Source: Candidatus Omnitrophota bacterium (GTDB lineage: Bacteria > Omnitrophota > Gorgyraeia > Pluralincolimonadales > Pluralincolimonadaceae). From it: DNA of 64,000 nt. The stretch lies in assembly GCA_041653595.1 (NCBI GenBank), contig JBAZFB010000006.1, positions 17,503 to 81,502 on the forward strand, given 5' to 3'. Below the pieces are notes generated by a model. It was not told the origin of the DNA, made no database searches, and saw nothing but the letters and a program-made list of their open reading frames with translations. Positions 5,494 to 27,184 of the stretch are shown here, one piece after another. Positions within the stretch are counted from its first letter, which is position 1. Every line of letters starts with the position of its first letter. A program made the translations under genes and the position numbers.

Positions 5494-6452
5494 CGTTTCA
5501 TTATCTTATTCTTTAAAACCCATAGCGCCGGAACAATTATGTTTTTTTTCATCGCCGGAGAGACCGAGCCTATCATCCAGCATTCTTTTTTGCACTCCCT
5601 AACGGCCTCGCGGACTTTCTCGGCTTGTCCGCCATTCCATATCTCGTTAAATGGTTTTTCCCTGATGTTACCCATGCTCATATCCACGCCGTTACACGGC
5701 ATAACATTACCGAAAGGATCTATGAAAAATAGATCCGTGCCAACCTCGCAGGGTAATAACCTTTTGTTGCCATGCGCGTAATTCAAAAGGCCATAATTAA
5801 AATACGCCCTGAACCAATTCTTCGGCCGACCACCCTTCAGTAAATTCGTAATCAACTTTTCCAATTCCCTGTCAAAATCGTCTAATCTGGTTATTTTATT
5901 ATCGAATTTATGGAAATAATACGTATTATGGACCGCGGCAGTCGCAAATTCCAGTCCCATCTCTTCGCTCAACTTATGGAGGTCCATAAGATCAAGTATG
6001 TTTCGGTCGGACAGGGTGATTCCAAAACCTATGTCTTTTAACCCCATTTTTCTGAGCTCTTTCAGGGTCCTTAGCCCATGCTCGAATCCGTCCTTTATTC
6101 CGCGAAGTTCGTCATTGGCCTTCTGAAGGCCTTCCATGCTTACCCTAATACCTATCTTCGGATATTGTCTCGCCAGATCCACTATCTTCTCAGTATAATA
6201 ACCGTTTGTGCTGATAACTATTCTTTTTGCCTTCTTACTCATCACCTCGACAAAACTCTTTATATCTTCCCTTATAAACGGCTCTCCGCCCGTTATATTA
6301 CAGAACCTCACACTTGGCAGAGACTCCAGATCCGAGGGCCTTATCTCTTCCTCGGGTCTCGTGGGATGCATCCATGTGTTACACATGTGGCACTTCGCAT
6401 TGCACCGATAAGTTATGGCTATGAGGGCTTCCTTAGGTTTATTTATCGCCAT
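5490..6452 (-). CDS. radical SAM enzyme with C-terminal SPASM/twitch-like Cys cluster
   Basis: CxxxCxxC motif CNAKCHMC near the N-terminus. C-terminal Cys-rich region (PCEVGTDLFFIDPFGNVMPCNG...CKKECWM). Start codon overlaps the upstream stop (ATGA), embedded between GT4 and GH genes. Confidence 0.75.
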   Translation of the reverse strand: MAINKPKEALIAITYRCNAKCHMCNTWMHPTRPEEEIRPSDLESLPSVRFCNITGGEPFIREDIKSFVEVMSKKAKRIVISTNGYYTEKIVDLARQYPKIGIRVSMEGLQKANDELRGIKDGFEHGLRTLKELRKMGLKDIGFGITLSDRNILDLMDLHKLSEEMGLEFATAAVHNTYYFHKFDNKITRLDDFDRELEKLITNLLKGGRPKNWFRAYFNYGLLNYAHGNKRLLPCEVGTDLFFIDPFGNVMPCNGVDMSMGNIREKPFNEIWNGGQAEKVREAVRECKKECWMIGSVSPAMKKNIIVPALWVLKNKIMKR

Positions 6453-7896
6453 CCGCGCCTCCGCCTCTTTCGATCTCTATCGCCGTAACCGATCTGGGCT
6501 CCAGCAGAATCTGAAATTTATTTGATTTTATTAAAAACTTTCTGCTTTTTATAACTACATCGTTATGCGGCGGCTTTTCGTTTGTTGAATCAATCGATTT
6601 CCCGGTTAAAACCCATTCACCGGCTTGAGACGATGGATTGAACCCGCGCAAATCTATAGTCAGCTTTTCTCTTTCGTTCAGATTCCTGTTTACCAGCATA
6701 ATATAAAGTTTGCTCCTGTCGTTTATTGTGCTTACGTTAACCGATACATATTTGTTTTTACTCAAAGAACATTGTACAAGCTCCTTGCCGAAATGCTTTG
6801 CGTACATTTCGAATACATAGTAGTTCGGTCTCTTAAAATAACTCTTACCAAGCTCGGACTCCCTACCGCTAAAACGGTTCGATACCATGCCCCAATATTC
6901 GTTTATGTAATTCCAATAATTTGCGCACAAAATATTATTCTCCGGTTTCATGAATATTCGCAGGAGCTCGGCATTTACAAGCGCGGTCCCCAGGCAGTGC
7001 CTGTAAGGTACCGGCTTTTGCTGAACAAACCATGCCGTAAATTCCGTGACGGCTATGGGCCTATCTTTCCCTGTGATGGACTTTATTATATTGTGCGTGT
7101 TCTTTATATCCTTCTCGATAGCCATGCCCTTGGTGAAAAGGTTTTCATATATTTTATTGGAATCCTGATTTGGGCTGTTATTTTTGCCGCCGTGAGGATA
7201 ATAATGCTTTACTATAAAATCAAACCTGTCACCGACCATCTTTACCACGCTCTCGTCCCAATCCTTCTCATAGCCGACTATTCCAAGCATGAGATTCGGA
7301 TTGATCGACTTAAACATATCATAATAATGCAGGTACCTATCAACATATTCTTGCGGTTTTAATATGAAGTAACTCTCGTTCCCTATCTCGATATATTTAA
7401 CTTCCGGATAATGCACTTTTAAATACTCCGCCAACCTTTTGTAACTATCTTCAAGCCACAGGTTTTGCAAGCATATAATAGGCTCTGCCCCTATTTCCCT
7501 GCAGAAACCTATCTGATCATCAAGCCCGAACTTATACTCCTTATTCGATAAACTCGGCACACCCTTTTCCCAATCCGTGAATTGTCCACTAAGCCTTATC
7601 ATGCGTATGTCTATGTTTTTTATAAGGGCAAGAGGCTCTTCGCAAAACTTTGTTCCATCCCTGATCCCGTAGCCATAGTCTGCTGCAATTCGATAGTTCG
7701 GGATCTTTTCACGGCCGTTATTCGCCTCCCACCCAAGAATGCTGGTGCCGTAAACCCTGGGGTTTACATTTTGGGTTTTGGCTGAGGCGTCTATGATAAG
7801 AGTTATCGTTTCAACCTTGTCGGCCGGCAGCACGCAAAAAACACATGCGCTCAATATGAATACCAATATTGTGAAAAATAATAGCGTCTTTCTCAC
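6439..7896 (-). CDS. secreted glycoside hydrolase, clan GH-A TIM-barrel (family uncertain)
   Basis: 485 aa with a signal peptide. The IEIGNE motif is consistent with the clan GH-A acid/base NE(P) strand. Embedded in the glycan cassette. Confidence 0.5.
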   Translation of the reverse strand: MRKTLLFFTILVFILSACVFCVLPADKVETITLIIDASAKTQNVNPRVYGTSILGWEANNGREKIPNYRIAADYGYGIRDGTKFCEEPLALIKNIDIRMIRLSGQFTDWEKGVPSLSNKEYKFGLDDQIGFCREIGAEPIICLQNLWLEDSYKRLAEYLKVHYPEVKYIEIGNESYFILKPQEYVDRYLHYYDMFKSINPNLMLGIVGYEKDWDESVVKMVGDRFDFIVKHYYPHGGKNNSPNQDSNKIYENLFTKGMAIEKDIKNTHNIIKSITGKDRPIAVTEFTAWFVQQKPVPYRHCLGTALVNAELLRIFMKPENNILCANYWNYINEYWGMVSNRFSGRESELGKSYFKRPNYYVFEMYAKHFGKELVQCSLSKNKYVSVNVSTINDRSKLYIMLVNRNLNEREKLTIDLRGFNPSSQAGEWVLTGKSIDSTNEKPPHNDVVIKSRKFLIKSNKFQILLEPRSVTAIEIERGGGADGDK

Positions 7897-7902
7897 GATC
7901 GA

Positions 7903-9114
7903 TTATACTCCGTATAGTTCTAGTATCTTTTTTTCCAGAATATCGGCGCCAAATCTCTCGTTAACCAGCTCCACCGCTCTAGCGCCTTTCCTCTCGCGCA
8001 TATCGCCGTCTTCTATAAGTATATTTAATCCGTGCGATATACCGTCAACCATGTGCGAGTAGCTGCCTATCGGCACCTTTATGCCAACTTCGTCATTCAC
8101 GCTGATATCGGGCCCGCCATAAGCGACGCAAACAACCGGCAGACCACTTGCCATAGCGTCCAGCACTACTGTTCCGCCGGGATCCTGAAGGGCCGGAAAC
8201 AGAAAAATATCGTAATCAACGAACATGGCCCTGTATTTTTCTAAAGGCACATGCCCAATAAACTTTATAACCCCCGAGAGGCCTTTTCTGTCGACGTATT
8301 CACGCAAACTTTTACTTAAAGGTCCGCTACCCGCTATATGAAACTCGTATCGCGCGCTAACTGCGTTACCCAGGGCTTCTACGGAATCGATGGCAAGCCA
8401 GACACCTTTATGCGCTGTGAGCCTGCCGGCGAATAAAATTTTAACCGTTCCGTCTTTATTTCCATTTGATCCTTTTGCCCGTTTTTTAATCCTAGTGTCA
8501 ACCATAGTATCGAAAATCTCGAGTATTTTACCTTCGCACCCGGATGGCAACAGTGGCCTCATATATTTTGTACCTATGATAATTTTTGACGCTTTCCTAA
8601 AATATTTCCGCCACCCAGGAATAACCGTTATAAACGATGCGATGAGGGACTTGCCCAGGTACAACAAGACTTGGCCCCTATAGGCGCGAATTGTGCGGAT
8701 ATCTAATTTCAGGCCGCCGCCCACCGGCCCCACATAGACCGGGACTTTGAACTTATATAGATCATTGAAGTAGTATATGCCTTCCGGAGTTAAACAATGT
8801 ATAACATCTATTCCGCCATCCTTTAATATGGCCGCTATTACTCTTCGACAATTTATTATAAATTCCCGATAAAGCATAAGATATCCAAGGCCTATCTTAT
8901 TCCAGGGCTCATACCGGTGCCTCTTTGTATCTACGTAAAAGAATTTTACGTTTCTTAAACTATCACATCTTTCAATATCTTCTTTATGATGATTGTCTAC
9001 TATTGCATATACTTCGCAATATCTTGAAAGCACCTCTACCCACGATGCGGCAACATGGCATTCGGAACCTATAAAGAAATTCAGGTCGTAAGCAACCACG
9101 ATCACTTTTTTCAT
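7903..9114 (-). CDS. glycosyltransferase family 4
   Basis: 403 aa. GT-B C-terminal motif QDPGGTVVLDAMASGLPVV. Confidence 0.7.
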   Translation of the reverse strand: MKKVIVVAYDLNFFIGSECHVAASWVEVLSRYCEVYAIVDNHHKEDIERCDSLRNVKFFYVDTKRHRYEPWNKIGLGYLMLYREFIINCRRVIAAILKDGGIDVIHCLTPEGIYYFNDLYKFKVPVYVGPVGGGLKLDIRTIRAYRGQVLLYLGKSLIASFITVIPGWRKYFRKASKIIIGTKYMRPLLPSGCEGKILEIFDTMVDTRIKKRAKGSNGNKDGTVKILFAGRLTAHKGVWLAIDSVEALGNAVSARYEFHIAGSGPLSKSLREYVDRKGLSGVIKFIGHVPLEKYRAMFVDYDIFLFPALQDPGGTVVLDAMASGLPVVCVAYGGPDISVNDEVGIKVPIGSYSHMVDGISHGLNILIEDGDMRERKGARAVELVNERFGADILEKKILELYGV

Positions 9115-10364
9115 TTAATACTTTCCCGAATTGCCTCATCGTATATCTGCATTAACGAAAGGTAGTGTTTATCTGCATTAAATTCCTGCTCGATAAACTT
9201 TCTCGCTTTTCTGCCCATGGCGGTAGCACTTGCGGCATTACTTGATAAATACTCTATTTTTTTACCGAGGTCTTCTGAATTGCCTGCTTCCGCCGTAAGT
9301 CCAGTTTCGCCATCCATTACCAACTCCGGAATCCCCCCTATGCGCGAAGCTATAACCGGCTTTCCGAGGGCAAAGCTCTCAAGCACGGATAAAGGATTAT
9401 TCTCATACCACTGCGATGGAAGTACCGTGCAGATCGATCTTTTTATTACGGAGTGAAGGTCGGCGCCTTTTAAATGCCCGAAAAACCTGATATTTTTTAT
9501 TCCGTCCAGAAACGCCTCCTTTTCAAGCGTTTCTTTTAACGGTCCATCTCCCACAATATTAACAACTATATTTGGAAGTTTCTTTATAGCCTTAAGTAGC
9601 GTTAGAACTCCTTTTTCTTCGGAGAGCCTTCCGAAGTAAGTAATTTCATTTTCCTTATGATCAAAATCAGGCTGGTATCCATTGGCCGAGATAAAATTCG
9701 GGAGATATACTATTTTACCGCGAAATCCCATTTCATTCATTTTTGTTTTTAGAAATCTGCTCGGGGAGATGAAAACATTTACATCGTCATAGATATGCAT
9801 TACCGTGTGATGAAGGTACATCTCCAGAGTATTGAGAAGGCTCTTAGAAAAAGATCCTTTCACGCATTTTTTTAATGCGCACTGATAGTATGCTCCATTT
9901 TTACAACTATCACAGATATTGTCCCGATTCAGCAGCCTGTACGATGCGCAGACAAGCTTATAGTCATGTAACGTCATGACTATCGGCACCCCGTGTTTTT
10001 TCAATACTCGGATTATGGAAGGCGATATCTGATGGTGTATGTTATGCAAATGCGCAATGTCAGGCTTTTCGGTCTTCAATAAACTGTTGATTTTAGAACT
10101 GGCTTCCCAGGAATAGAGAAGCTTCAGGCCATTAATGGCTTTGGCGCGCCATCCATTTTTGTTATAATCAACATTCGAGACGAAGTACTTACTATTATCC
10201 GATTCAAGATCAAAAGGGTGATGCATAGAGAAATCAAGCACCCTGTGCCCATTAGCCTTTAATAGCTCTCTGGTGGCAAAAAATACTTTTTCCGACCCGC
10301 CTTTTTCATAAAAATATTTATTAACTACCAGAATTTTCATTCGATTCTCGATTAGCGCCGCCAA
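9111..10364 (-). CDS. glycosyltransferase family 4
   Basis: 417 aa. MKILVVNKYFYEKGGSEKV N-terminus. C-terminal motif ENNPLSVLESFALGKPVIASRIGGIPE. The true start is probably the second Met (about 10340). Confidence 0.7.
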   Translation of the reverse strand: MAALIENRMKILVVNKYFYEKGGSEKVFFATRELLKANGHRVLDFSMHHPFDLESDNSKYFVSNVDYNKNGWRAKAINGLKLLYSWEASSKINSLLKTEKPDIAHLHNIHHQISPSIIRVLKKHGVPIVMTLHDYKLVCASYRLLNRDNICDSCKNGAYYQCALKKCVKGSFSKSLLNTLEMYLHHTVMHIYDDVNVFISPSRFLKTKMNEMGFRGKIVYLPNFISANGYQPDFDHKENEITYFGRLSEEKGVLTLLKAIKKLPNIVVNIVGDGPLKETLEKEAFLDGIKNIRFFGHLKGADLHSVIKRSICTVLPSQWYENNPLSVLESFALGKPVIASRIGGIPELVMDGETGLTAEAGNSEDLGKKIEYLSSNAASATAMGRKARKFIEQEFNADKHYLSLMQIYDEAIRESIK

Positions 10365-11823
10365 CCTTCAAATCGTGCTCTCCGCTGCCCTGTTTTACAA
10401 ATGACCATAGTATGCCGAGGCTTCCGAAATAGAAATACGTCCATAATGACGTTTCGTAAAATGTAGCTTTTAGGGACTCTATAAGACTTTCTGTAAACAC
10501 AAGAAACGCACCAAAAGCAAAAATACTGACAATTTGGCTTGTTTTGAGATGGAAACTCTCTCGAAGAATCTTAAAGAATCCAAATATTACCGAAATATAC
10601 AACAATATACCGAAAAAACCCGTTTCGGCCATAACGTGTGGCCAGAATGTATCATTTATAAAACTTGGAGAATCTGGCGTGAACCCCCATATATTGCTCA
10701 ATCCGTACTTGTAATAAAGAGGGCTGTAGTCTGCCCTGTTAATTCCGCTGCCAAAAGTTCCAAAACCGGATCCGAGCGGGAAATTATCAACGGCGATCTT
10801 AACTCCGGTCTTAAACAGGATGCTCCTAGGGGTCTCGCCTGCCGTAATATAATTTTTGTATAGATCCTTGTAAATCGTCATAACAAAACCGGAAAATAAC
10901 AACAATATGATAAGAAGTATTGCTATCGCATTTTTCTTTGCGATTTTTTTAGCGCTAACTTGAGCAGGCCATTTCGAAATAGCCATCAATGTAACCAAAA
11001 CAAATCCAAAAAGAGAGGTCCGGCGAAATGAGAATATAATGCCGACCATAAATACCGCTATGAGTATTGCGTATTTTCTTTTCCCCGTCACCAAAAATGC
11101 CGCCATACTATAACATCCGAGTATTGCCATAAAAGCGCCGAAAGCGCCGGGGTGACCAAACACAGATTGCATTGCAGCAAACCCGAAGCTTGTCGTATTG
11201 GGTAAATACCCCAGTTTTACTAAAAAAGCGTTGGGCCAGATAACAGCTAATACGCCATAAAGCATAACGATGAAACCAACAATCAGAAATCCTTTCATGT
11301 AGTATTTCAGGTGCTTCTCTTTGAAATCGGAATAAGCGAATATGTAGAACAAGAGGAAACCTTTAACAAACAATACGGCGCCGCCTATTGTCGTTTGAAA
11401 CGACACTATCCTATTGGTAATACTGCTCGCGAATCCTAAAAGAATAAGCGCAATAACTGGCATATCAATAGGGGAACCGAAAAATTTTTCTTTCCTTGCG
11501 AGTCTCCTTATAACCATAAGTGTGAACAAAACTATTATGGCAGCTTCGTCCAGATTCTGTATTATCTTAAGGCGAAATACATGCAGCATATACGACTGCA
11601 TAACCAGGAAAAAGCCAAAAAGGAAAATAGCGACCTGCGGCGTGCATAGCGCTAGAACTAGGCCGAATAAGCACAGAAAAAAGAAGGCGGCAATAAACAC
11701 GTCTACGGAAATAATAAACGACAATAGTAGCGTAACAATAATAAGAGCCGTAGCTACTATTAGAAGGAATGGACCGTTATTGAGTTTTTCTCTATCAGGC
11801 ATGGGACACGAAATGGTTATCAA
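10321..11823 (-). CDS. O-antigen ligase/Wzy-like polymerase family membrane protein (PEP-CTERM locus type)
   Basis: 500 aa with about 10-12 TM helices and a large periplasmic loop. Position between GT genes and the flippase. Confidence 0.6.
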   Translation of the reverse strand: MITISCPMPDREKLNNGPFLLIVATALIIVTLLLSFIISVDVFIAAFFFLCLFGLVLALCTPQVAIFLFGFFLVMQSYMLHVFRLKIIQNLDEAAIIVLFTLMVIRRLARKEKFFGSPIDMPVIALILLGFASSITNRIVSFQTTIGGAVLFVKGFLLFYIFAYSDFKEKHLKYYMKGFLIVGFIVMLYGVLAVIWPNAFLVKLGYLPNTTSFGFAAMQSVFGHPGAFGAFMAILGCYSMAAFLVTGKRKYAILIAVFMVGIIFSFRRTSLFGFVLVTLMAISKWPAQVSAKKIAKKNAIAILLIILLLFSGFVMTIYKDLYKNYITAGETPRSILFKTGVKIAVDNFPLGSGFGTFGSGINRADYSPLYYKYGLSNIWGFTPDSPSFINDTFWPHVMAETGFFGILLYISVIFGFFKILRESFHLKTSQIVSIFAFGAFLVFTESLIESLKATFYETSLWTYFYFGSLGILWSFVKQGSGEHDLKVGGANRESNENSGS

Positions 11824-13051
11824 CCTTATTTTTTATATAAATCATTGACACCGCCGAATTCAATATGAAAGTTATGGTTATCGAAATCGCGGCGCCCCAT
11901 ATTCCGTACGAGGGAACCAGCATAAAAAGAAGTATCAGGGCAATCACAAACTTCGACGCCTCTAGCATAAATCTTTGCTTCATCATGCCCAGCGCAAAGA
12001 ATAATGCTGAAAACGGCATATAAACTATCGAAAATAGGTATCCTAAAAGCAATATCCTCATGATCGATCCAGCCGATTCGTAGTCAGGCCCATAAAGCAC
12101 CCTTATAATACTATGCGCGAATATAATTAAAATAACAACAAGAATATTGATTGCGCTGCTTATTATAAATGATTCCTTTATGAATCTAGCATAGGTGGCC
12201 CTTGATTCAAGCGCCTTGCAGCCTTTGGGTAAAAATACGTTCGAAAGCGAACCCGTCATTACCGATATAACCAAAATAAACTGCTGAGCCGAAAAATATA
12301 TACCTACGGATTCAAACTTTACATATCTAGGCAGGAAGAAAAGATCCAGTCGTGTAAAAAGATATCCCAGTGTCATCGTTCCAAATATCCACTTGCCAAA
12401 AGCAAATGACGAATTTAATATTTTTGTATCCAGAGGTAGAAGGTTCCGGATCTTGCGTTTAAATATAAGATAAATGCTTACAGTTCCTATCGCAAGAGAA
12501 ACCGAGGCGTACATTGCTATCGCCATGTTAAACGATGGGCGCATGCCGAATACAACGCTGAGTATTAACATTAAAAATATCGTTACTGTATAAAATGAAT
12601 AGAAAAACGAAAACATCGTAAAGTGCTCTCTCTCCTGGTAGATACTGGCTATGGTCATCAAAAATGACTGAAAAACACCGGATATAACGGCAAGCGTTAT
12701 GACCCATTCGATGCCCGGCTTCTGGAAACAGTATTTTGCCAGAAGAATAGATAGCGGATATGAAATGACTATCGCGATGACCGAATAAATTATCTTCATT
12801 ATCACGGCCATCTTAAAATATTCCCGTTTTTCGTCATCGCTTTCGGCAATAGCAGCGTTGCGAATGAACGTTGCGTCAAATGCCTGAGGGAACAGCCACG
12901 TTAGCACCATAACCGTAAAGAATATTGAAAACTTTCCAAAATCGGCCGGGCCCAGGATGCGGGCAACTATTATCGAATTTAAAAACGATACGCCCCTGGA
13001 GAAACCGGTACCGAAAAGTACTGTAATGTAATCTTTTATTGTCTTTTTCAT
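11795..13051 (-). CDS. Wzx-type oligosaccharide flippase (MOP superfamily)
   Basis: 418 aa with about 12 TM helices. N-terminus ITVLFGTGFSRGVSFLNSIIVARILGPADFGKFS is typical of the polysaccharide biosynthesis protein family. Confidence 0.7.
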   Translation of the reverse strand: MKKTIKDYITVLFGTGFSRGVSFLNSIIVARILGPADFGKFSIFFTVMVLTWLFPQAFDATFIRNAAIAESDDEKREYFKMAVIMKIIYSVIAIVISYPLSILLAKYCFQKPGIEWVITLAVISGVFQSFLMTIASIYQEREHFTMFSFFYSFYTVTIFLMLILSVVFGMRPSFNMAIAMYASVSLAIGTVSIYLIFKRKIRNLLPLDTKILNSSFAFGKWIFGTMTLGYLFTRLDLFFLPRYVKFESVGIYFSAQQFILVISVMTGSLSNVFLPKGCKALESRATYARFIKESFIISSAINILVVILIIFAHSIIRVLYGPDYESAGSIMRILLLGYLFSIVYMPFSALFFALGMMKQRFMLEASKFVIALILLFMLVPSYGIWGAAISITITFILNSAVSMIYIKNKVDNHFVSHA

Positions 13052-13061
13052 AGTGTTATGA

Positions 13062-14051
13062 TCATTTTACTGCAATTGCATCCTTTGGATATTTATCAAT
13101 AGCAGGTATTTTTCTAAAAACGCCGCCTATAAGACATAGCGATATGACGCTTATATTTATAAGACTTAGCACGGCTTGATGAACGCTCCCCTTCTTTATG
13201 CTTATACCTATGAATAAAAGACAGGCTAAAACCGTAAAAACAATGCGGGAATTTCCGCTGTTAATGAAAATACCTGTCGTTATACATACCGCCAGTATTG
13301 TGTAGACAATATACGGCATAAACCTGTCCCAAATAACCCCGAATTCTCCGTTATATAAAACCCAGGAAAACGTATCACCCATACCTTGCCATAAATTGTT
13401 TCTAATACGACGAGTCGTTTCTTTAAATGTTTTTCTTGGAATAGAATAATGATATATGGAATCGTACGGAAGATAATATAACTTGTATCCCAGCTTTTTT
13501 AGGCGCCACGACAATTCCGCCTCTTCCTCTGCCCTTAAGAACGGGTGGAATCCTCCGGCTTCCACAAGATATTTTCTGCGAAAAACAGCGGACTGAAATA
13601 CATAACTTACCTGCCTTTCATATTTAAGCCCTTTGCCATCTCTGGAAACGTGCGGCTCGGAACGCTCACCATCGGCTGTTACATAGATGTCATATTGCTT
13701 ACCCATTACTGCCGCAACATCATTATTAGCTTCAAGAAAACCTATGGCCTCCTCTGCCCATCCATTTACCAGCTCCATATCCCCATCCATAAATAACAGG
13801 TATTCTCCGCAAGCATAATTTGTTCCTGTAAAACGCGCCGCAGAAGGGGACAATTTCCACGAAGGCCTCATTCCAATAATCCTGATCGGGTAACTCTTCG
13901 CAATATCTACTGTATCGTCACTTGAGTATGAGTCTATAAGAATTATTTCGGATTTATCAATATTTTTTATCGTTTGCATAACGGATCCGATACAGCGGCC
14001 TATGTTCTTTCCCTCGTTCCTGGCTATTATTATGCAGCTTAGCTGCGACAC
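13062..14051 (-). CDS. glycosyltransferase family 2 with C-terminal TM helices
   Basis: CIIIARNEGKNIGRCIGSV...LIDSYSSDDT...FMDGDMEL: a GT-A fold with DxD. Confidence 0.75.
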   Translation of the reverse strand: MSQLSCIIIARNEGKNIGRCIGSVMQTIKNIDKSEIILIDSYSSDDTVDIAKSYPIRIIGMRPSWKLSPSAARFTGTNYACGEYLLFMDGDMELVNGWAEEAIGFLEANNDVAAVMGKQYDIYVTADGERSEPHVSRDGKGLKYERQVSYVFQSAVFRRKYLVEAGGFHPFLRAEEEAELSWRLKKLGYKLYYLPYDSIYHYSIPRKTFKETTRRIRNNLWQGMGDTFSWVLYNGEFGVIWDRFMPYIVYTILAVCITTGIFINSGNSRIVFTVLACLLFIGISIKKGSVHQAVLSLINISVISLCLIGGVFRKIPAIDKYPKDAIAVK

Positions 14052-15472
14052 TTTCCCGCCCCTTCCGATTTGCGATTATTTTTTACCGTGATTCCGTGGC
14101 GCGAGATGTCTATGTTGGTAATTTTGCATATCAACTTACGTATATATCTGCGGATAAACATGGAAACGCTTATCACGGCGTAAGTTAGGCTAAGGAACGG
14201 ATCCTCCCATGATAGTACGGCCTCTACTGCCTCTCTTGTTGCCAGAGACCTGATCTGGGTAAAAAAAGGCAAATGATATATGGATTTTTTATCCAGGCTG
14301 TACGCTGCCAGATATTCTAACTCGCCCTTTATATAAAACCATTTTGTTTTTAACTTATTAGCCTTATACTCTCCAATACTGAGTCCGGAATATTCCTGAT
14401 ATTGCATGGCTACAAAATTCATGCCACGAAAAGCCGCAAGTGACATCCAGTGATTGGAGCGCGGATTAAGCTCAAGGAATTTATAGGCGCCGTCCCTTGC
14501 GTCGTATTTAAACTCCGTCTCTCCTATGCCTTTATAGCCTATCGCGCTGACATATGATTTGGTGTACGACTCTATTTCGGGACAATCAATCTTTTCTCCG
14601 AAGGTACATATGCCAAAATCTGCCGGAAATTGCCTGATCTTCTTCGAGGAGAATAAGCGCATGCTGCCCGATTTATCCGAATAGAACTTACACTCAAATA
14701 AAGTTTCACATAGTCCCGGTATCTCTTCCTGGATTATTACCTCAAGCCCTCTACTTAGAACATCTTTAGCCCTGCAAATCAACTCTTCCTGATCGTGGCA
14801 TACAAGCGCCTTGACATATTCATATACATGCATAAACTCATGAATCTTGCTGATCTTTCCACCTTCCATATTAAACCTGGCAATAGGTTTAATTATAACC
14901 GGGAACCGCAGCTTACCCTCCCACGAATCAATATCCGCGATATCCTTCAGAGATAAAGTGCGCGGGACAGGAATCCCGAGGTCCCTAGCTTTCAGATACA
15001 TTTGCCATTTGTCAAATCCCCAGAATAAAGCATCTTTTTCCAGATATGGATACTGATAATATTCCTCAAGCACTTTCTTATTGCTCGATATAAGAAAAAC
15101 GGAAATGTCATCGCATGGAAATAATACGGCTTTTTTAACTTTTTTACCGAGATCAACCAAAAATGATACGAAATGTTCGGGTTCCCTGGCCGGGTCGGGA
15201 CAGCGGCGAGCTTGAAACAGCCGCGATGACGACATGAAACTGTGTCGATGGTTCAGTCCAATTATGGGAACGCTTCTATCCGCCATATAAATACTGCGTA
15301 CCGCGCCGTAACCACATACTGTTTCATATGGATATACTAAAGCCGGGACATTATTTACTTGTTTTTGCAACTCTCTCTCCCGAATGATCGTAGAACCAGA
15401 ACCATAATATCCTAATATTATTGACGTAGCCGCGGTCCTGCGCGCCAAGTTTCTTCGCCATGCTTTTGGCAA
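14039..15472 (-). CDS. ATP-grasp domain protein (carboxylate-amine ligase type)
   Basis: FPVIIKPIARFNMEGG, EEIPG and GIGETEFKYDARDGAYKFLELNPR match ATP-grasp signatures. The annotated start overlaps the upstream gene by 120 nt, so an alternative start near 15286 (MADRS) is possible. Confidence 0.6.
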   Translation of the reverse strand: MPKAWRRNLARRTAATSIILGYYGSGSTIIRERELQKQVNNVPALVYPYETVCGYGAVRSIYMADRSVPIIGLNHRHSFMSSSRLFQARRCPDPAREPEHFVSFLVDLGKKVKKAVLFPCDDISVFLISSNKKVLEEYYQYPYLEKDALFWGFDKWQMYLKARDLGIPVPRTLSLKDIADIDSWEGKLRFPVIIKPIARFNMEGGKISKIHEFMHVYEYVKALVCHDQEELICRAKDVLSRGLEVIIQEEIPGLCETLFECKFYSDKSGSMRLFSSKKIRQFPADFGICTFGEKIDCPEIESYTKSYVSAIGYKGIGETEFKYDARDGAYKFLELNPRSNHWMSLAAFRGMNFVAMQYQEYSGLSIGEYKANKLKTKWFYIKGELEYLAAYSLDKKSIYHLPFFTQIRSLATREAVEAVLSWEDPFLSLTYAVISVSMFIRRYIRKLICKITNIDISRHGITVKNNRKSEGAGKCRS

Positions 15473-16019
15473 ATCTGTTATCGGTCTTAACGTACCATCT
15501 CACTCCCTTATACCCCCTATCGCACAGAACAGCAAAGCCCGATAGGTAGGAATTCATTGTTATACTTCTCTTCACGATAAAGTCCCTGTCTATAAGCAGG
15601 CCATAAAGATACGGGACTTCATTAAGCATATCGCCTCGGGCGATTTTTGGATAGATGTGATCTCTGGAATTATCACTGCACCATGAAATAGCCACCAATT
15701 TACCTGATAAGAGCATGGCAAAACATAGCTGTTTCTCTTTAAATCTTATTTTCACGTCGTCAATAAGCAGCCTGTCCCAGAAAGCCTCTGTCCTTATGAG
15801 CTCAACTAATTCATCATAGCTTCCTATAATCACGAATTTCTGATCTGCTGGAAGGATAACTTGCGATACGGGAGATTTAAAATCCTTGAAGTAATAAGTG
15901 GACTTGCTGAAAGAAACCGGAGGAAAAAGAAACCAGAAGAACGCCTTGATATTTTTAGTGACCGCGGCAATCAGTGGATATCTCTTCCTTAGGCTGTTAT
16001 TTATTTGAAAGCTTATCAT
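15351..16019 (-). CDS. putative acyltransferase (GNAT/FemAB-like fold)
   Basis: 222 aa. A weak GNAT-like motif around RFAKSMAKKLGA. First gene after a stem-loop and an A/T-rich upstream region. Confidence 0.35.
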   Translation of the reverse strand: MISFQINNSLRKRYPLIAAVTKNIKAFFWFLFPPVSFSKSTYYFKDFKSPVSQVILPADQKFVIIGSYDELVELIRTEAFWDRLLIDDVKIRFKEKQLCFAMLLSGKLVAISWCSDNSRDHIYPKIARGDMLNEVPYLYGLLIDRDFIVKRSITMNSYLSGFAVLCDRGYKGVRWYVKTDNRFAKSMAKKLGAQDRGYVNNIRILWFWFYDHSGERVAKTSK

Positions 16020-16103
16020 AAATCATTTTGGGTATAACATACCTTTTATTGTTAATAATTGCATCAATAACGCTATGACGGTATCCGCATATTCTGTAGT
16101 CAT

Positions 16104-16143
16104 GGGACGTCCCCCGTCAGAAGCGGGCATTGGGGGACATCCT
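16104..16143 (-). other. stem-loop between BY-kinase-like gene and downstream cassette
   Basis: GGACGTCCCCC-(16 nt)-GGGGGACATCC, an 11-bp stem with one G-T pair. No U-tract follows, so it is not a classic terminator. Confidence 0.35.
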
Positions 16144-16150
16144 ATGCGCT

Positions 16151-17731
16151 CTACACCCTCTCGTATATGGCCTTCGGAATGGCGAAGGTGCGGCTGCCCA
16201 AGATTGCTCCGAGGAAAACGACTTTCCTCTTAGAGATTGCTTCAAGCGCTTCGCTCCCTCGCAATGACTCTACGGCCTTCTGCGCGGCCTGGCGGCGGGT
16301 GCGGCCTTCCTCGACTATGAACACCACGCTGTCGACGTGCTGGCTTAATACGATGGCATCCTTCGCTTCCCTAAGGTTTGCGCAATCCACAAATACCACC
16401 TCGTATTTTTCCTTGGCATGGTCTATGAGCACGCCCATTTTCTGGGATTCCAGCAGGGTGCCCGGGTTCATGTTTATTTTGCCGCTGGTCAGGACGGCGA
16501 GGTTTTCGGTAATGTTATTGACCGCCTCGTCAAATGAGACCTTTCCTTCGAGCACATCCACAAGGCCTTCTTTGTTGGCGATCTTAAAAGCTGTATGGAT
16601 GGCGGGTTTACGCAGATTGGCGTCAATGACAAGGACCTTCGGCCTGCATTTATTGGAGATGCTTTTCGCGATGTTCATTATGGCCATAGTGACCCCTTCT
16701 TTCGGATAAGCGGCGGCTATTATAACCGACTTTAACTTCCTGTCCTTCAATTCAAAGCAAAGTTGGTCCGATATATGCTCGTAATCGTTCGGCTTTGGTT
16801 TCTTCGGGATAGAGCCGAGGAAAGCCACATTCAACGTCCGCTCGATATCTTCCGGGCATTTGAATGTCTGGTCCATATAATCAAAACCAAACGCGAGCAT
16901 GACGCCGAGGAATATGCTCATAAAGAACGCTAGGATAAGCATAAGAACCTTTGGCAGGCCGGTCGGCTTTATCGGCGGTATCGCCTGCTCGATTACCTTT
17001 ACGCTTGCCGGGCCGATAGCCTCGATGTTTGGCAGCGTCTGGCCGTTTAAGCTCTTCTCCATCTGCGCTATACTGTCTCTAAGCTGCATGACCGCTAGGT
17101 TCTTCTCTCCGTATTTCATCTGCATCTCAGCTAACTGCTGTTCGAGGTCGAATATGACATACGAGCGGCTAATGATATTGGCAATAGCCGCGGCGATGCC
17201 CGGGTCGAAATCCTGGTAGGATATCGTAAAGAGGTTTGTGTCGCGGATCGGCTCAACATTGACGTTTTCTTTTAGCTCCTCGATGGCAAGGCGGAATAGG
17301 ATGCTTTGTTTCTGCTGTTCGGCCACCTTTGGGTCGGTGGTCTTCGCGGTTATCTCAGCGAGCTGCTTATTTAATAAGGCGACCTTCAAATCAATAATGG
17401 CTTTGCATGGCGGGCTGGCAAATTTCTTTTCGAAATCGAGCGGCTTGAGGCCGATTGCTTTAAGCGTGCGCTCGAGAACAGGCATTGACTTGACTATCTC
17501 GCTCTGGGTAAGGGCAACCTGTATGTTCTGCATACCGATGAGCGGGATGTAATATGGCGACTCTACTCCCTTCTGCGCAGTTACGGACATCTTGACCGTC
17601 GCCTGATACGTCGGTGTCTTTATCCACAACCCAAGTGCCATGACAGCCGTAACAGTGATGATGGCCATGATAATGACCCATTTCTGCCTGAAGATAACTT
17701 TCAGGTAATCTCTTAAAGTTAATTCGTCCAT
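16151..17731 (-). CDS. polysaccharide co-polymerase (Wzz domain) fused to BY-kinase-like P-loop domain, possibly catalytically degenerate
   Basis: N-terminal TM plus Wzz/periplasmic coiled-coil region plus second TM. C-terminal VLVIDANLRKP (Walker A') and VVFVDCANL (Walker B-like). The Walker A reads YPKEGVT with Val where Lys is expected. There is no C-terminal Tyr cluster. Confidence 0.7.
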   Translation of the reverse strand: MDELTLRDYLKVIFRQKWVIIMAIITVTAVMALGLWIKTPTYQATVKMSVTAQKGVESPYYIPLIGMQNIQVALTQSEIVKSMPVLERTLKAIGLKPLDFEKKFASPPCKAIIDLKVALLNKQLAEITAKTTDPKVAEQQKQSILFRLAIEELKENVNVEPIRDTNLFTISYQDFDPGIAAAIANIISRSYVIFDLEQQLAEMQMKYGEKNLAVMQLRDSIAQMEKSLNGQTLPNIEAIGPASVKVIEQAIPPIKPTGLPKVLMLILAFFMSIFLGVMLAFGFDYMDQTFKCPEDIERTLNVAFLGSIPKKPKPNDYEHISDQLCFELKDRKLKSVIIAAAYPKEGVTMAIMNIAKSISNKCRPKVLVIDANLRKPAIHTAFKIANKEGLVDVLEGKVSFDEAVNNITENLAVLTSGKINMNPGTLLESQKMGVLIDHAKEKYEVVFVDCANLREAKDAIVLSQHVDSVVFIVEEGRTRRQAAQKAVESLRGSEALEAISKRKVVFLGAILGSRTFAIPKAIYERV

Positions 17732-18447
17732 TAGAATACCCCCTCTTCGACCTGCACGATGTCGCCGGGTTCGAGGACGACGTCGTTAGCGAGGCCGTTC
17801 ATTATGAGTTTCATGTTGACCTTTATCATATCGTAACCCGCGCCTTTGACTTTAGGACGAAGGACCTTTACGCGGCTTGAGGAGCCGTATCTGGTGAAGC
17901 CGCCGGCGCTTGAGATCGCCTTGAGGACCGTCATATTATCCTCGAGCAGGTATGTGCCGGGCTTTAAGACCTCGCCATAGACATAAAATTTTTTGCTTTG
18001 GGATTGCTTGAGCGCTACCGAAACGACCGGGTATTTCAGGTAGCCGTCGGCGAGGCGACTCTGTATCTCATCCTGGATTTCAGCCGGCGTCTTGCCTTTT
18101 ACCTCCACCCTGCCGATATACGGGAACGTTATCGAGCCGTCCGGCGATACCGTTACCGTAAGCGCCATCTGCTCCGGCTGGAGGACGTTTATATCGAGGA
18201 TGTCGTCAACGCCGACTTTGTATTCTTTGGGGCGTGCGGGCTGAGGCGTTACTGCCTCAGCGATGGGGGCAGAGTTAACAAGAGATGGACCTGTCCCCTC
18301 CTGTGCAACGGGGATAGTCCCGGCGCGTGGAGTCGCCGCCTGCGGGATGGCTGCCTTCGGCTGGGCGAAATCTGACCGTTTTATCGTTTCGTCAGCGAAT
18401 GCCACGCTTGCGATAAACAAAAACACGAGTATTGCGTACCTCATCAC
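17731..18447 (-). CDS. polysaccharide export periplasmic protein (Wza/EpsE family, short form)
   Basis: Signal peptide. Poly_export motif PGDIL.I.V....L plus an SLBB-like region. ATGA overlap with the downstream gene. Confidence 0.8.
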   Translation of the reverse strand: MMRYAILVFLFIASVAFADETIKRSDFAQPKAAIPQAATPRAGTIPVAQEGTGPSLVNSAPIAEAVTPQPARPKEYKVGVDDILDINVLQPEQMALTVTVSPDGSITFPYIGRVEVKGKTPAEIQDEIQSRLADGYLKYPVVSVALKQSQSKKFYVYGEVLKPGTYLLEDNMTVLKAISSAGGFTRYGSSSRVKVLRPKVKGAGYDMIKVNMKLIMNGLANDVVLEPGDIVQVEEGVF

Positions 18448-19805
18448 TTCGCTCCTTTCGCTAATAAGACTACGGGGATTGTTTTAAAAAATACTTTCAG
18501 GTCCAGCCAAATGGACCAGTTGTCGATGTATTGCAGGTCGAGTTTCATCCATTGGTTGAAATCTTTTATCTCGTTGCGGCCGCTCGTCTGCCAGAGACAG
18601 GTAAGCCCGGGCCTCATGCTCAGGCGCCGCCTCTGCCAATTATCATATTTATCGACCTCGTTAGGGATAGGCGGCCTCGGGCCCACGACGCTCATATCTC
18701 CACTGAGGATATTCCACAATTGCGGCAACTCATCGAGACTGAACTTCCTGAGGAGCCGGCCAATCGCCGTAATACGAGGATCGTTTTGCATCTTGAAGAC
18801 CGGCCCACCCATCTCATTATATTTCTGCAGTTCCGCGAGTTTCTCTTCCGCGTCGCTGACCATCGTCCTGAATTTATAAAAAATAAATCTCCTGCCGTTC
18901 AGCCCGCAACGCTTCTGCTTAAAGAAGACCGGCCCCGAAGAAGTCGCTTTTATCGCGAGCGCGATTCCCAAGAATACCGGCAATAAAATTATAAGCGCCA
19001 AGCCCGAGACGACTATATCAAAGGCCCTTTTTACGAATAATTCTCCAGCCTTGTCAGGCGCGCTCTCGAACGTCAGCATCGGTATGCCGAAAAACTCGGT
19101 CTGCTTCGCTTTCGCGAGTTTCAATTCATACAGGTCGACGACTACGCTCGCGGGTATACCTTCTATCTCGCACATGCGTATGAGGTCCTCTATCTTCTCG
19201 AACCAGAGCCGCGGCACGACGAATACAACGTGATCTATGACGTTGCGGTGCAGGATGTTCGCCATGTCGCCGAACTCGTCCTCATCTATCATCCGAGTAA
19301 TCTTAAAACCCCATTCGCCGTGCTGTCCGACAAGTTCGGCAAAATTCTTCGCCCTCCTGCCCGTCCCGACGATGAGGATGTTCCTAGTGTTGTATCCCTT
19401 GCTCCTAAGGAACCTGAAAAACATTACTATGACTACCTTCTCAGCCGCGAACAGGACGAGCGAAACGCCGATTATCAAAAATAAGAACGTCCTGCTTACG
19501 TCGTGGAGCTTTACCACGTATACGACACTGCTGAACACCACGAAACCGAAGAACGCTGCCTCGAAAACTATCGAAATCACGTCGCCGATCGGCTTGGTCC
19601 GGAACGAATTATACATTCCGAGGAAATGCATAAGCCCCACCCATACCACGACAAAATACGGCAGGAGGCGAAGGTAATCCTCGAGCGGATATAGCTGTTT
19701 CATTTCATTACTCAAAAAATACGCAAGGATAAATGATGCGGCCGCCAGCACCAGGTCCGCGAAGATCATTAATTTCCTGAATATGTCCGCGTGTTGTTTA
19801 AGCAT
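18444..19805 (-). CDS. undecaprenyl-phosphate sugar phosphotransferase (priming glycosyltransferase, WbaP/EpsB-like)
   Basis: N-terminal TM bundle. C-terminal bacterial sugar transferase motif DELPQLWNILSGDMSVVGPRP. Confidence 0.85.
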   Translation of the reverse strand: MLKQHADIFRKLMIFADLVLAAASFILAYFLSNEMKQLYPLEDYLRLLPYFVVVWVGLMHFLGMYNSFRTKPIGDVISIVFEAAFFGFVVFSSVVYVVKLHDVSRTFLFLIIGVSLVLFAAEKVVIVMFFRFLRSKGYNTRNILIVGTGRRAKNFAELVGQHGEWGFKITRMIDEDEFGDMANILHRNVIDHVVFVVPRLWFEKIEDLIRMCEIEGIPASVVVDLYELKLAKAKQTEFFGIPMLTFESAPDKAGELFVKRAFDIVVSGLALIILLPVFLGIALAIKATSSGPVFFKQKRCGLNGRRFIFYKFRTMVSDAEEKLAELQKYNEMGGPVFKMQNDPRITAIGRLLRKFSLDELPQLWNILSGDMSVVGPRPPIPNEVDKYDNWQRRRLSMRPGLTCLWQTSGRNEIKDFNQWMKLDLQYIDNWSIWLDLKVFFKTIPVVLLAKGAK

Positions 19806-20929
19806 TAAAATTCAGCGGCCAGCCCGAGAGTGACACGATTTTTCAAATATCCGCCGAGCGGGACGGACGATGTCTCATGTGTGTATGAATAATCGGCGGT
19901 TGCCTTCCAATGGTCGTTGATGTCATAAGTCAATCCTGCGCTGGACCCGATGAGATGCGTCACGCTTGACGCCCCGATATATTCGCCGCGGCCGTAAAAA
20001 GCCGAAAGCGTCCCGCGCAATTTCTGGAAAATTTCGTGCGAGAGCGCGCCCGAAACCCGCCACTGATCGAAAAGGTCCTGCGAGTACGAAACCGTATCAA
20101 ACCGTTTGCTGAAATAGAGCGACGCGCGTGTGCGCTCGCTGAAGTCGTCGGAAAGCGAGACTTGCACCATCGGCTTCGTATATCTCCTGCCGCTGAAAGA
20201 ATTAATGAAATCCACTCCGCCCACACCGTCGAAATACAACTGTTTCGTGATGTATTTGCGCAGGCCGCCGCTCAGCGTATTGACCCTGGTGTTCGCACCC
20301 GGGCTGAAGTCACGGGCAGTAAAATCATACGCCCCGATGAAAGTCAGGTCCGAGCCGACGATATATGCGCCTTCGACTCCGGCCGTATTTAAATATGATT
20401 TCGGGATGTCGGTGCGCGAATATGTGTTGTATTCGTTCGAATACCGCAATGAAGCGCCGAAATGCTCCGAAATATCGCGCGCATAGCCGAGGTTCACGCG
20501 GTTCCTCGTCGAACTGTATCGCCCGCCCGTCCTCCCGAACACATCCTCGAAACTGCGCGGCTCTTCCGTGCGCGAAAACGAGTCGGAAACGCTTATCCTG
20601 TCGAACTTCGACAGCTCGGAGTTGACAGACGCGGTAAAATCGCCGCCGTTGTTGTTGAAACCGTGCTTGTTGGCGTAAAATTCGTGGTAATAGCGGCCGC
20701 TCGCCGTGAAAACCGTGGTCTTGTTGTCGTAAGAGGCGCTGAGGCCGACCCACGGCCTGGTGATATAATCTTTGATCTTGCCGACCTTTACGTAGGTGAC
20801 ATTATCATCGTAGGTTTCGGAGACTCCACCCCTTAACATAACGTCAATATTACTAAGGCGGTATGCCCACGCATTGCCCGAAATCAGGCAAATAACCATC
20901 ATCACTGCGAAAACGGCACTCTTTTTCAT
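19805..20929 (-). CDS. outer-membrane beta-barrel protein, PEP-CTERM locus EpsL-like
   Basis: Signal peptide (AWA). Alternating beta-strand pattern rich in Y/S/T/G. C-terminal ...TLGLAAEF ends in Phe as in OMPs. First gene of the export block. Confidence 0.5.
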   Translation of the reverse strand: MKKSAVFAVMMVICLISGNAWAYRLSNIDVMLRGGVSETYDDNVTYVKVGKIKDYITRPWVGLSASYDNKTTVFTASGRYYHEFYANKHGFNNNGGDFTASVNSELSKFDRISVSDSFSRTEEPRSFEDVFGRTGGRYSSTRNRVNLGYARDISEHFGASLRYSNEYNTYSRTDIPKSYLNTAGVEGAYIVGSDLTFIGAYDFTARDFSPGANTRVNTLSGGLRKYITKQLYFDGVGGVDFINSFSGRRYTKPMVQVSLSDDFSERTRASLYFSKRFDTVSYSQDLFDQWRVSGALSHEIFQKLRGTLSAFYGRGEYIGASSVTHLIGSSAGLTYDINDHWKATADYSYTHETSSVPLGGYLKNRVTLGLAAEF

Positions 20930-26426: not shown

Positions 26427-26430
26427 AGTG

Positions 26431-26670
26431 TCAGAATTTGCCCTTTAGTTTGGAAAGTACTTTTGTCGCCTCGTTAAGGAAACGGTTGAACTCTTCGGCC
26501 TGTATAAGCCCGATCATGCCGTCCGGCTTGGCGAAGACGACAAGCTTATCGCCGGACTTTATCTTGAACGTCTTCCTTATGTCCGCGGGAACCACCACTT
26601 GTCCCCTCTCACCTACAGTCACCACGCTGTGGAACCCGCCGCCCGGGCCGCCCTTGAATTCAGTTTTCAT
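26431..26670 (-). CDS. AbrB/MazE/SpoVT-family swapped-hairpin DNA-binding protein
   Basis: GERGQVVVPADIRKTFKIKSGDKLVV is a swapped-hairpin motif. Perfect SD GGAGG 8 nt upstream. Leads the efflux operon. Confidence 0.65.
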   Translation of the reverse strand: MKTEFKGGPGGGFHSVVTVGERGQVVVPADIRKTFKIKSGDKLVVFAKPDGMIGLIQAEEFNRFLNEATKVLSKLKGKF

Positions 26671-26689
26671 CTTAACCTCCGTAATGTGT

Positions 26690-26745
26690 TATTGTATGAA
26701 TTGTATGATTTGTATGATATATCATACATACGGAGATGTCAATAT
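26690..26745 (-). promoter_or_regulatory. promoter plus operator of the AbrB-like/efflux operon
   Basis: On the minus strand: TTGACA (26742..26737), 17 nt, TATCAT (26719..26714). Three tandem TTGTATGA units (26692, 26701, 26710; period 9) overlap a perfect 16-bp palindrome GTATGATATATCATAC (26712..26727). Confidence 0.55.
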
Positions 26746-26799
26746 ATTTATTTATGTTTATTACTATAGTTAGACGCGCCTCCACCCAAAAGGTTTACA

Positions 26800-26842
26800 C
26801 GCAAAACGCCCCGCTCCAAAAGAGCGGGGCGTCTGTAATTGA
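26800..26842 (-). terminator. rho-independent terminator after the Met-rich small protein gene
   Basis: ACGCCCCGCTC-CAAAAG-GAGCGGGGCGT, an 11-bp GC-rich stem. On the minus strand it is followed by TTTTGCG. Confidence 0.6.
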
Positions 26843-26854
26843 GGATATACTTAA

Positions 26855-27157: not shown

Positions 27158-27184
27158 GGTACACGCCCTCCTATTTTTCGTTTT

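Follow-up and report, generated by a model that had tools for sequence, protein, structure and literature searches.

A putative phosphorylation-independent polysaccharide co-polymerase with a degenerate BY-kinase domain in Candidatus Omnitrophota

Does a protein that carries the name of a bacterial tyrosine kinase (BY-kinase), together with its fold, also have to work as one? The question is raised by a locus in a 64,000-nucleotide stretch of DNA from a Candidatus Omnitrophota bacterium (contig JBAZFB010000006.1, positions 17,503 to 81,502; the whole stretch is called the window below), where a gene on the minus strand encodes a protein of 526 amino acids (aa) resembling a polysaccharide co-polymerase (PCP) fused to a cytoplasmic BY-kinase-like domain. 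The protein is identical (100%) to the database entry P0001 from a Candidatus Omnitrophota metagenome-assembled genome (MAG), and the NCBI label (PGAP) of this identical protein is “polysaccharide biosynthesis tyrosine autokinase”. An original prediction made from the sequence of the window had instead proposed a pseudokinase-type co-polymerase, based on a valine in place of the Walker A lysine and the lack of a C-terminal tyrosine cluster. The analysis below leads us to the reading that the protein is a phosphorylation-independent PCP of the PCP-2a type, in which a co-polymerase and a BY pseudokinase scaffold are fused to serve the Wzx/Wzy-dependent exopolysaccharide (EPS) pathway of Candidatus Omnitrophota, and we give this reading a probability of about 0.72.

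Catalytic motifs and C-terminus of the 526-aa protein

The protein has the architecture of a PCP-2a, with two transmembrane (TM) helices placed around a helical, Wzz-type periplasmic domain and with the BY-kinase-like domain fused on the cytoplasmic side (Table 1). The Wzz domain is recognised by Pfam at residues 2-91 (40.2 bits, cutoff 25.5), and a sub-threshold GNVR match is found at residues 229-281. The NCBIfam BY-kinase domain model TIGR01007 matches residues 317-493 with 111.6 bits at a cutoff of 108.05, and the protein stays far below the cutoffs of TIGR01005 and of the Wzc, Etk, EpsG, TIGR03018, TIGR03007, and EpsF models.

When the protein was compared with the PDB sequences by phmmer, the best matches were CapAB, VpsO, Etk, Wzc, and BceF, with E-values from 6e-20 to 3e-11. 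The query segment aaypkeGVTma is aligned onto seapgaGKSti of Staphylococcus aureus CapAB (3BFV) and onto gaGMS of the K55M mutant (2VED), and in a MAFFT alignment V347 is placed under the K of GK[ST] in canonical long relatives (750-790 aa) from the same search. Because the two alignments concur, the Walker A lysine corresponds to Val347, at the position of K55 in CapB, and the first glycine of GxxxxGK corresponds to Lys344. An error in the register of the P-loop is ruled out, since the two alignments are independent and both give V347, and the substitution of the lysine by valine claimed in the original prediction stands.

The segment VLVIDANLRKP had been taken as the Walker A' motif of a BY-kinase, which is right for Asp370 and Arg374 but not for the second aspartate of the hhhhDxDxR consensus, where DxD has become DAN with Asn372, so that the motif is degenerate. 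This second aspartate is the proposed catalytic base of BY-kinases. The Walker B-like segment VVFVDCANL does contain its aspartate, Asp449, with DTPP changed to DCAN. At the site equivalent to the EX2RX2R oligomerisation motif, as this motif is defined in a review, the protein reads NDYEHIS and has neither of the two arginines.

The C-terminus is IPKAIYERV. Its Y523 is the last tyrosine of the protein and the sole one in the final 80 residues, the next one back being Y443. Translation of the three minus-strand frames across positions 15950-16290 did not reveal a Tyr-rich continuation, and the homologues stop at the same C-terminal position, which together rule out a frameshift or truncation concealing a tyrosine cluster. 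The lack of a Tyr-rich tail had thus been seen correctly, and Y523, which proves to be invariant (see below), had passed without remark. Collectively, Walker A, Walker A', EX2RX2R, and the tyrosine cluster of an active BY-kinase are all degenerate or lost in a protein that retains the fold. According to the review (Tables 2-3), changing the Walker A lysine to methionine, alanine, or isoleucine leaves Wzc, VpsO, and ExoP without kinase or ATPase activity, and from the sequence we infer that the cytoplasmic domain has no kinase activity.

Conservation in the family and predicted fold

An exhaustive HMMER search over 1.84 billion cluster representatives gave 818 clusters at E<=1e-30, some canonical relatives included, the 150 best-scoring ones being nearly all members of one family with the 526-aa protein. 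Long canonical proteins of the Wzc type, which have GK[ST], DxDxR, EX2RX2R, and Tyr-rich tails, surface only near E~1e-50, two outliers excepted. Conservation was scored in the 120 nearest homologues (46-82% identity, 490-560 aa) and in a representative alignment of 126 sequences, named A1.

It is clear from the nearest homologues that the lysine is lost throughout, with V in 72, T in 24, A in 14, and S in 5 sequences and lysine in none of the 120. Asp370 is present in 119 and Asn372 in 118 of them, and G346, T348, D370, R374, and D449 are common. The two arginine columns of EX2RX2R are occupied in the family by H, Q, or E and by A or S. Among the 126 representatives a lysine or arginine at the Walker A position occurs in 8, the P-loop glycine and the Ser/Thr are both retained in 69 while the pair is lost in 57, and the Walker B aspartate is retained in 81 and lost in 45. 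Asp370 (120/126), Gly508 (122/126), and Arg514 (117/126) are far better kept, and Pro519 and Tyr523 are found in all 126. These counts indicate that the active-site pocket is under relaxed constraint and that the tail is the most constrained element of the cytoplasmic domain. At the other end of the protein R7, D8, and F14 are nearly invariant.

Mean identity in the family is 49% for the cytoplasmic domain and 60% for the periplasmic part, and the cytoplasmic domain has its full length in all members. As judged from this conservation the domain is maintained and not decaying, and decay into a pseudogene is rejected on the same grounds. GKS or GKT is still present in some distant members (P0218, P0236, P0239, P0253, P0257, P0263, and P0266), and since these share the IPxxIYxR tail, the loss of the lysine looks, from the sequences, like a secondary event within a clade already reduced to a single tail tyrosine.

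The family was found in 80 species-representative genomes, from Omnitrophota, Brocadia, Kuenenia, Jettenia, other Planctomycetota, Auribacterota, Desantisbacteria, Eisenbacteria, and an Elulimicrobium MAG. Two paralogues on different contigs, neither with the Walker A lysine, occur in some genomes (loci L016 and L055 in Ca. Brocadia sp. MAG_8; L080 and L084 in a Planctomycetales MAG). No publication on the family was found in the literature on anammox Wzc or on Omnitrophota exosortases.

The structure predicted by AlphaFold2 with alignment A1 has a mean predicted local distance difference test score (pLDDT) of 94.3 and a predicted template-modelling score of 0.82. The cytoplasmic domain is Rossmann-like, with a last strand at residues 505-514 and a terminal helix at residues 520-525. 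The C-terminal tail is modelled as ordered (block mean pLDDT 91-96), unlike the C-terminus of Wzc, which is Tyr-rich and unstructured (PMC12004946). An insertion, GSEALEAISKRK at residues ~492-503, set between the final helix and strand, is the sole low-confidence stretch of the domain (block pLDDT 62); it is lineage-specific, being present in P0001 and its nearest relatives and missing from most of the family.

In a Foldseek search of the PDB the top matches were protomers of the full-length Wzc K540M octamer (E~1e-25, TM-score ~0.6), followed by the isolated kinase domains of CapA1B1 (4JLV; TM-score 0.88, root-mean-square deviation 2.4 A), CapAB, Wzc, Etk, and BceF, with TM-scores of 0.77-0.88. 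In the model the BY-kinase fold of the cytoplasmic domain is complete. As to whether the P-loop is intact, a matter raised by the original prediction, the answer is divided, because the fold is fully kept in the AlphaFold2 model and in the Foldseek comparison, but the residues of the motif are degenerate. The protein is in other words a structural homologue of BY-kinases, without their catalytic residues and Tyr-rich tail, fused to a PCP-2 part, which is what defines a BY pseudokinase of the fused kind.

Proposed function and alternative explanations

A partner kinase or phosphatase was looked for around the gene. Using phmmer with the cytoplasmic domain and a scan for the CxGNxCRS signature of low-molecular-weight (LMW) phosphatases, we found no second BY-kinase-like domain and no such signature in any open reading frame (ORF) of the window. 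The same result was obtained for 84 related loci with flanks of up to 10 kb, and neither for these nor for the window was the search aimed at PHP-type (CpsB-like) phosphatases. Around P0007 and the Brocadia homologue P0104 the Pfam annotation shows Wzy_C, Polysacc_synt, and glycosyltransferases, and no kinase or phosphatase.

We propose that the co-polymerase part works together with Wzy and with the translocon formed by an outer membrane polysaccharide export (OPX) protein and a beta-barrel, and that the short helical periplasmic domain presumably reaches these two translocon partners, the short OPX protein and the beta-barrel, whose genes lie immediately upstream. The dead kinase domain would be a cytoplasmic platform that gives the co-polymerase oligomer stability or order and makes contacts to the polymerisation and export machinery, with no cycle of phosphorylation and dephosphorylation of the kind that drives Wzc. 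The ordered tail (R514...P519...Y523) would replace the flexible Tyr-rich tail and most likely docks as a fixed structural element, for which the cytoplasmic base of the TM helices or a neighbouring subunit are candidate sites and R7, D8, and F14 a candidate partner site. Packing against the TM1 base has been described for helix alpha11 of Wzc and for the helix at the C-terminus of HfsB (Blocher et al. 2025, PMC12004946). The pseudokinase-type co-polymerase first suggested from the sequence has in this way gained support, since the lysine, the second aspartate, the ring arginines, and the tyrosine cluster are missing family-wide, the fold is kept, and no kinase or LMW-phosphatase signature lies nearby. 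Between the two modes of regulation then considered, ATP binding or scaffolding, the scaffold is favoured and ATP binding has become the weaker option, the P-loop Gly and Ser/Thr being gone in 57 of the 126 representatives.

Some observations weigh against our reading. Gly346, Thr348, Asp370, Arg374, and Asp449 are retained in the 526-aa protein. Several PDB entries of Wzc K540M, obtained by crystallography and by imaging, hold MgADP according to their titles, and because a Wzc without the lysine is seen with nucleotide, a protein that has lost the lysine may still bind it. Moreover, Y523 lies roughly where the tyrosine cluster of canonical relatives begins in the MAFFT alignment and is a possible phosphorylation site for a kinase encoded elsewhere, and the scan for kinases and phosphatases covered ~20 kb per genome, which leaves room for a distant enzyme of either kind.

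Retained residues and mutant structures of this kind would fit with a nucleotide-dependent switch without kinase activity, where ATP or ADP-Mg, held by backbone amides, Thr348, Asp370, and Asp449, toggles the protein between open and closed forms and between oligomeric states. The five residues are common among the 120 nearest homologues as well, structures exist for CapAB K55M besides those for Wzc K540M, and, according to the review, Mg/nucleotide shifts K540M to a closed, oligomer-competent state. Against this stands the uneven pattern of conservation, with the P-loop pair and the Walker B aspartate lost in 57 and 45 of the representatives next to an invariant tail, which argues that nucleotide binding is not the conserved function of the family. 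The missing lysine is also normally the main phosphate ligand. We consider such a switch possible, though unlikely.

A more speculative and rather doubtful view gives the tail itself an unusual role. The P519/Y523 tail could be a “frozen substrate”, with its tyrosine plugged into the dead active site of the neighbouring subunit, or Tyr523 could alternatively be a one-site phospho-switch written by a distant kinase. As a frozen substrate Tyr523 would descend from the tyrosine cluster, Asn372 would hydrogen-bond the tyrosine rather than deprotonate it, and the ring would be locked in the assembled state without any phosphorylation cycle. The family would then record a stepwise path from active single-tyrosine kinases, represented by the members with GKS or GKT, to fully dead scaffolds.

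The invariance of Y523 in all 126 representatives could also mean that the dead domain presents this tyrosine to a BY-kinase or another tyrosine kinase encoded elsewhere, phosphorylation of the single site regulating the complex. Y523 is in register with the first tyrosine of canonical clusters, in an alignment that is short and of low confidence here, and the GKS/GKT members with the same tail suggest that the tail tyrosine may once have been an autophosphorylation site. The idea is nevertheless hard to reconcile with the lack of kinase and LMW-phosphatase signatures within 10 kb in the 84 loci or in the window, with a tail modelled as an ordered helix (pLDDT >90) and not as a flexible acceptor loop, and with the equal invariance of Pro519, which is consistent with a structural motif. 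In addition, the genetics of EcpK argue that pseudokinases are independent of active BY-kinases (PMC12004946), and we regard phosphorylation in trans as improbable.

Could the protein be an autokinase after all, with Lys344 substituting for the lost lysine, as in kinases where the lysine has moved, and with Tyr523 as its target? Lys344 lies three residues before the missing lysine, and the NCBI autokinase name and the TIGR01007 score point in this direction. Position 344 is however not conserved (K in 42, G in 21, R in 15, E in 12, and Q in 11 of the 120 nearest homologues; K25, R18, G18, and S14 in the 126-sequence alignment), 118 of 120 have Asn for the second Walker A' aspartate, the EX2RX2R motif needed for trans-autophosphorylation in the ring is missing, and the CxGNxCRS scan detected no phosphatase in the locus, all of which makes a relocated lysine very improbable. 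An artefact, be it gene decay, an error in the sequence, or a frameshift hiding a normal kinase, found no evidence in its favour and has a negligible chance in view of the intact ORF, the identical database protein, the lack of a Tyr-rich alternative frame, and hundreds of homologues in several phyla with the same architecture and end point.

The phosphorylation-independent PCP-2a that we favour resembles Escherichia coli Wzc (7NHR, 3LA6) in its order of TM helix, helical periplasmic domain, TM helix, and fused cytoplasmic P-loop domain and in being encoded beside an OPX gene in a Wzx/Wzy pathway, and Wzc is its best Foldseek match. It differs from Wzc in having Val for the Walker A lysine, DxN for DxD, no EX2RX2R, and a single ordered tyrosine in place of a flexible tail with 5-7 tyrosines. 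No Wzb-type phosphatase gene was detected nearby, and the OPX partner is of the short type with a separate beta-barrel. The periplasmic domain of Wzc is about twice as large as the ~220 aa found here, and the extracytoplasmic domain of S. aureus CapA is closer in size. CapA/CapB (3BFV, 2VED, 4JLV) gave the best sequence match (E 6e-20) and the best structural match at the level of the domain. CapA and CapB are however two proteins, where we have one fused polypeptide, and the GKS, DGD, and EX2RX2R motifs of CapB, as well as its YYAYY-type tail, are all lost in our protein.

BY pseudokinases acting by direct interaction with a PCP have been described in the pairs EcpK/EpsV of Myxococcus xanthus and HfsB/HfsA of Caulobacter crescentus (PMC12004946). 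Like our protein EcpK and HfsB have a BY-kinase-like fold without catalytic residues or a Tyr tail, belong to a Wzx/Wzy EPS pathway, and have the same proposed scaffold mechanism, and the resemblance extends to the Myxococcus eps locus, since the neighbouring genes here match best the EpsZ (glycosylphosphotransferase) and EpsY (short OPX) models and the beta-barrel is like EpsX. By description EcpK and HfsB differ in being stand-alone proteins. EcpK furthermore lacks several secondary-structure elements and every Walker motif (PMC12004946), in contrast to the complete fold with D370, D449, and G346/T348 kept here, and the tail of our protein is a conserved Pro/Tyr motif and not a Lys/Arg helix.

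Fused variants are known as well. As cited in PMC12004946 from Cuthbertson et al. 2009, they include S. meliloti SMc01795, V. vulnificus VV1_2305, M. japonicum Mlr8439, and B. ceti BCETI_6000729, and GumC of Xanthomonas has been termed a “pseudo-BY-kinase” (Hajredini et al. 2022). As far as these accounts describe them, they share with our protein a single polypeptide in which a PCP part is joined to a BY-kinase-like domain without catalytic residues and/or the tyrosine cluster. By comparison with these descriptions, the 526-aa protein belongs to the class of fused PCP-pseudokinases. The known fused variants and GumC are proteobacterial, whereas the present family occurs in Omnitrophota, Brocadiales, and other candidate phyla. 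The concept of a BY pseudokinase, fused forms included, is already published, and the type of protein is not new; what the known examples do not describe is the complete fold with partial remnants of the Walker motifs, the invariant Pro/Tyr tail, and the taxonomic range.

The family thus adds a large and phylogenetically distant group, from Omnitrophota, anammox Brocadiales, and other candidate phyla, to the phosphorylation-independent PCP-2 proteins, which suggests that tyrosine phospho-cycling in the style of Wzc is not universal for capsule and EPS export. The PGAP name “tyrosine autokinase”, given on a borderline domain score, is probably wrong for the 526-aa protein, and naming of this sort inflates the counts of bacterial tyrosine kinases in metagenome surveys. 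Since the lysine is kept in some members and lost in most on a background of one and the same tail, the family is a natural series that could separate the non-catalytic needs for a BY-kinase domain in co-polymerase function. EPS drives the formation of anammox granules, and the family may matter to that biotechnology. We see the main value in the correction of the annotation and in a large comparative data set for pseudokinase evolution.

The locus and other features of the window

The PCP gene is the last in a tightly overlapping unit of four genes, in the order beta-barrel, initiating glycosylphosphotransferase, OPX, and PCP (Table 1), and its ATG and the OPX stop codon have one base in common (TAATG). 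Neighbourhoods were counted in the 80 species-representative genomes with the family, 75 loci being informative for the upstream gene. In 62 of these 75 the gene directly upstream is an OPX homologue, and among the 80 related loci an OPX homologue is present in 73, a glycosylphosphotransferase in 57, and a beta-barrel in 53. Loci without an OPX gene before the family gene include L055, L084, L005/L006, and L026.

Table 1 Positions of the gene, its domains and motifs, and other features in the 64,000-nucleotide window.
Feature	Position	Strand	Basis
PCP-2a-like protein gene with degenerate BY-kinase domain	16151..17731	minus	526-aa ORF, ATG start
TM helix 1 (residues 17-37)	17621..17683	minus	AlphaFold2 helix; hydrophobic segment
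Short, mostly alpha-helical periplasmic domain (residues ~38-260, ~220 aa)	16952..17620	minus	AlphaFold2 secondary structure; Wzz/GNVR Pfam
TM helix 2 (residues 261-286)	16874..16951	minus	AlphaFold2 helix; hydrophobic segment
Cytoplasmic BY-kinase-like (putative pseudokinase) domain, residues 296-526	16154..16846	minus	phmmer to CapAB/VpsO/Etk/Wzc; Foldseek to CapA1B1 4JLV
Helix alpha2 region, expected EX2RX2R site; reads NDYEHISDQLCFE, both Arg missing	16751..16789	minus	MAFFT with canonical relatives; family columns
Degenerate Walker A AAYPKEGVTM; Val347 for catalytic Lys	16685..16714	minus	phmmer, MAFFT, homologue columns
Degenerate Walker A' VLVIDANLRKP; Asp370 kept, second Asp is Asn372	16604..16636	minus	phmmer, MAFFT, homologue columns
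Walker B-like VVFVDCANL; Asp449 kept	16373..16399	minus	phmmer, homologue columns
Conserved C-terminal tail LGSRTFAIPKAIYERV in place of Tyr cluster; modelled as ordered helix	16154..16201	minus	alignments, AlphaFold2
Short OPX (Wza/EpsY-like) export protein gene, translationally coupled to PCP gene	17731..18447	minus	NCBIfam pepcterm_export/EpsY/EpsE-like, all below cutoff
Initiating polyprenyl glycosylphosphotransferase, EpsZ/WcaJ-like	18444..19805	minus	TIGR03025 above cutoff
Outer-membrane beta-barrel protein (BBP2_2, weak TIGR03016), likely partner of short OPX	19805..20929	minus	family matches
Low-GC (40-44% vs 50-55% either side) variable cassette, ~12 kb	4381..16019	minus	GC and family searches
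Exosortase and EpsI-family protein	2056-3539	plus	PF09721, 179 bits; ~13 kb from PCP gene
MacB-type ABC transporter, MacA-like adaptor, TolC-family channel	22173-26426	minus	
Hybrid-cluster protein / hydroxylamine reductase	27277-28944	minus	815 bits
Two radical-SAM proteins consistent with HydE/HydG	35391-37737	minus	
Maturase HydF	37734-39023	minus	
Hydrogenase large subunit, NuoG-like N-terminus	39389-41140	minus	
NuoF-like protein	41142-42881	minus	
NuoE-like 2Fe-2S protein	43233-43805	minus	

Downstream of the PCP gene the low-GC cassette encodes GT4 and GT2 glycosyltransferases, an ATP-grasp protein, a MOP-flippase-like (Wzx-like) protein, a 12-TM protein without a family match, which is a candidate Wzy, a radical-SAM enzyme, and a protein of 485 aa whose end is weakly arabinofuranosidase-like. 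The ORFs at 10321-11823 (500 aa) and 15351-16019 (222 aa) gave no Pfam or NCBIfam match. The block has the look of a serotype-type cassette that is exchanged horizontally.

An orphan fragment occupies 16009-16071 (minus strand), in the gap that separates the PCP stop (16151) from the following ORF. It encodes VIDAIINNKRYVIPKMIYDKL(SNK*) and is a second copy of the C-terminal tail motif of the family, preceded by a stop codon and without a gene body. When the window was scanned for the tail motif only this fragment and the real gene end were found, with 0.04 matches expected from shuffled sequences. The fragment sits exactly at the border between the core genes with ~50% GC and the glycosyltransferase cassette with 40-44% GC, which suggests that recombination at the 3' end of a donor PCP gene brought in the cassette by exchange.

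The original prediction had contrasted the fused protein with the separate EpsF and EpsG usual in PEP-CTERM loci. An exosortase and an EpsI-family protein are indeed present in the window, but neither the exosortase nor the PCP reaches the XrtA/PEP-CTERM cutoffs. The exosortase is above the generic TIGR02602 cutoff and below those of XrtA, XrtB, and XrtV, with XrtB and XrtV being closest, and may be of an unclassified type. The PCP shows weak similarity to the models of both the XrtA/PEP-CTERM pair (TIGR03007, 59.2 vs a cutoff of 278.85; TIGR03018, 109.2 vs 230.65) and the EpsF/EpsG pair (EpsF TIGR03017, 60 vs 423; EpsG TIGR03029, 76 vs 314). Both of these systems are split into two proteins, in contrast to the fusion seen here, and their autokinases are mostly Tyr-rich at the ends. 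With all scores below cutoff, and with just 2 of 80 other genomes having an exosortase within 10 kb of the family gene, membership in the XrtA/PEP-CTERM family was rejected.

Directly upstream of the EPS core, at 20978-28944 (minus strand), an MFS transporter gene is followed by ABC/TolC export genes. A second low-GC island (~40-43%) at 30263-34491 (minus strand) encodes proteins of 1111 and 301 aa, of which the larger has one N-terminal hydrophobic segment and only weak matches to the DUF900/DUF676 alpha/beta-hydrolases, and the smaller has no family match. The genes at 35391-43805 (minus strand) form an [FeFe]-hydrogenase cluster, which looks like a hydrogenase of the electron-bifurcating type together with its maturases.

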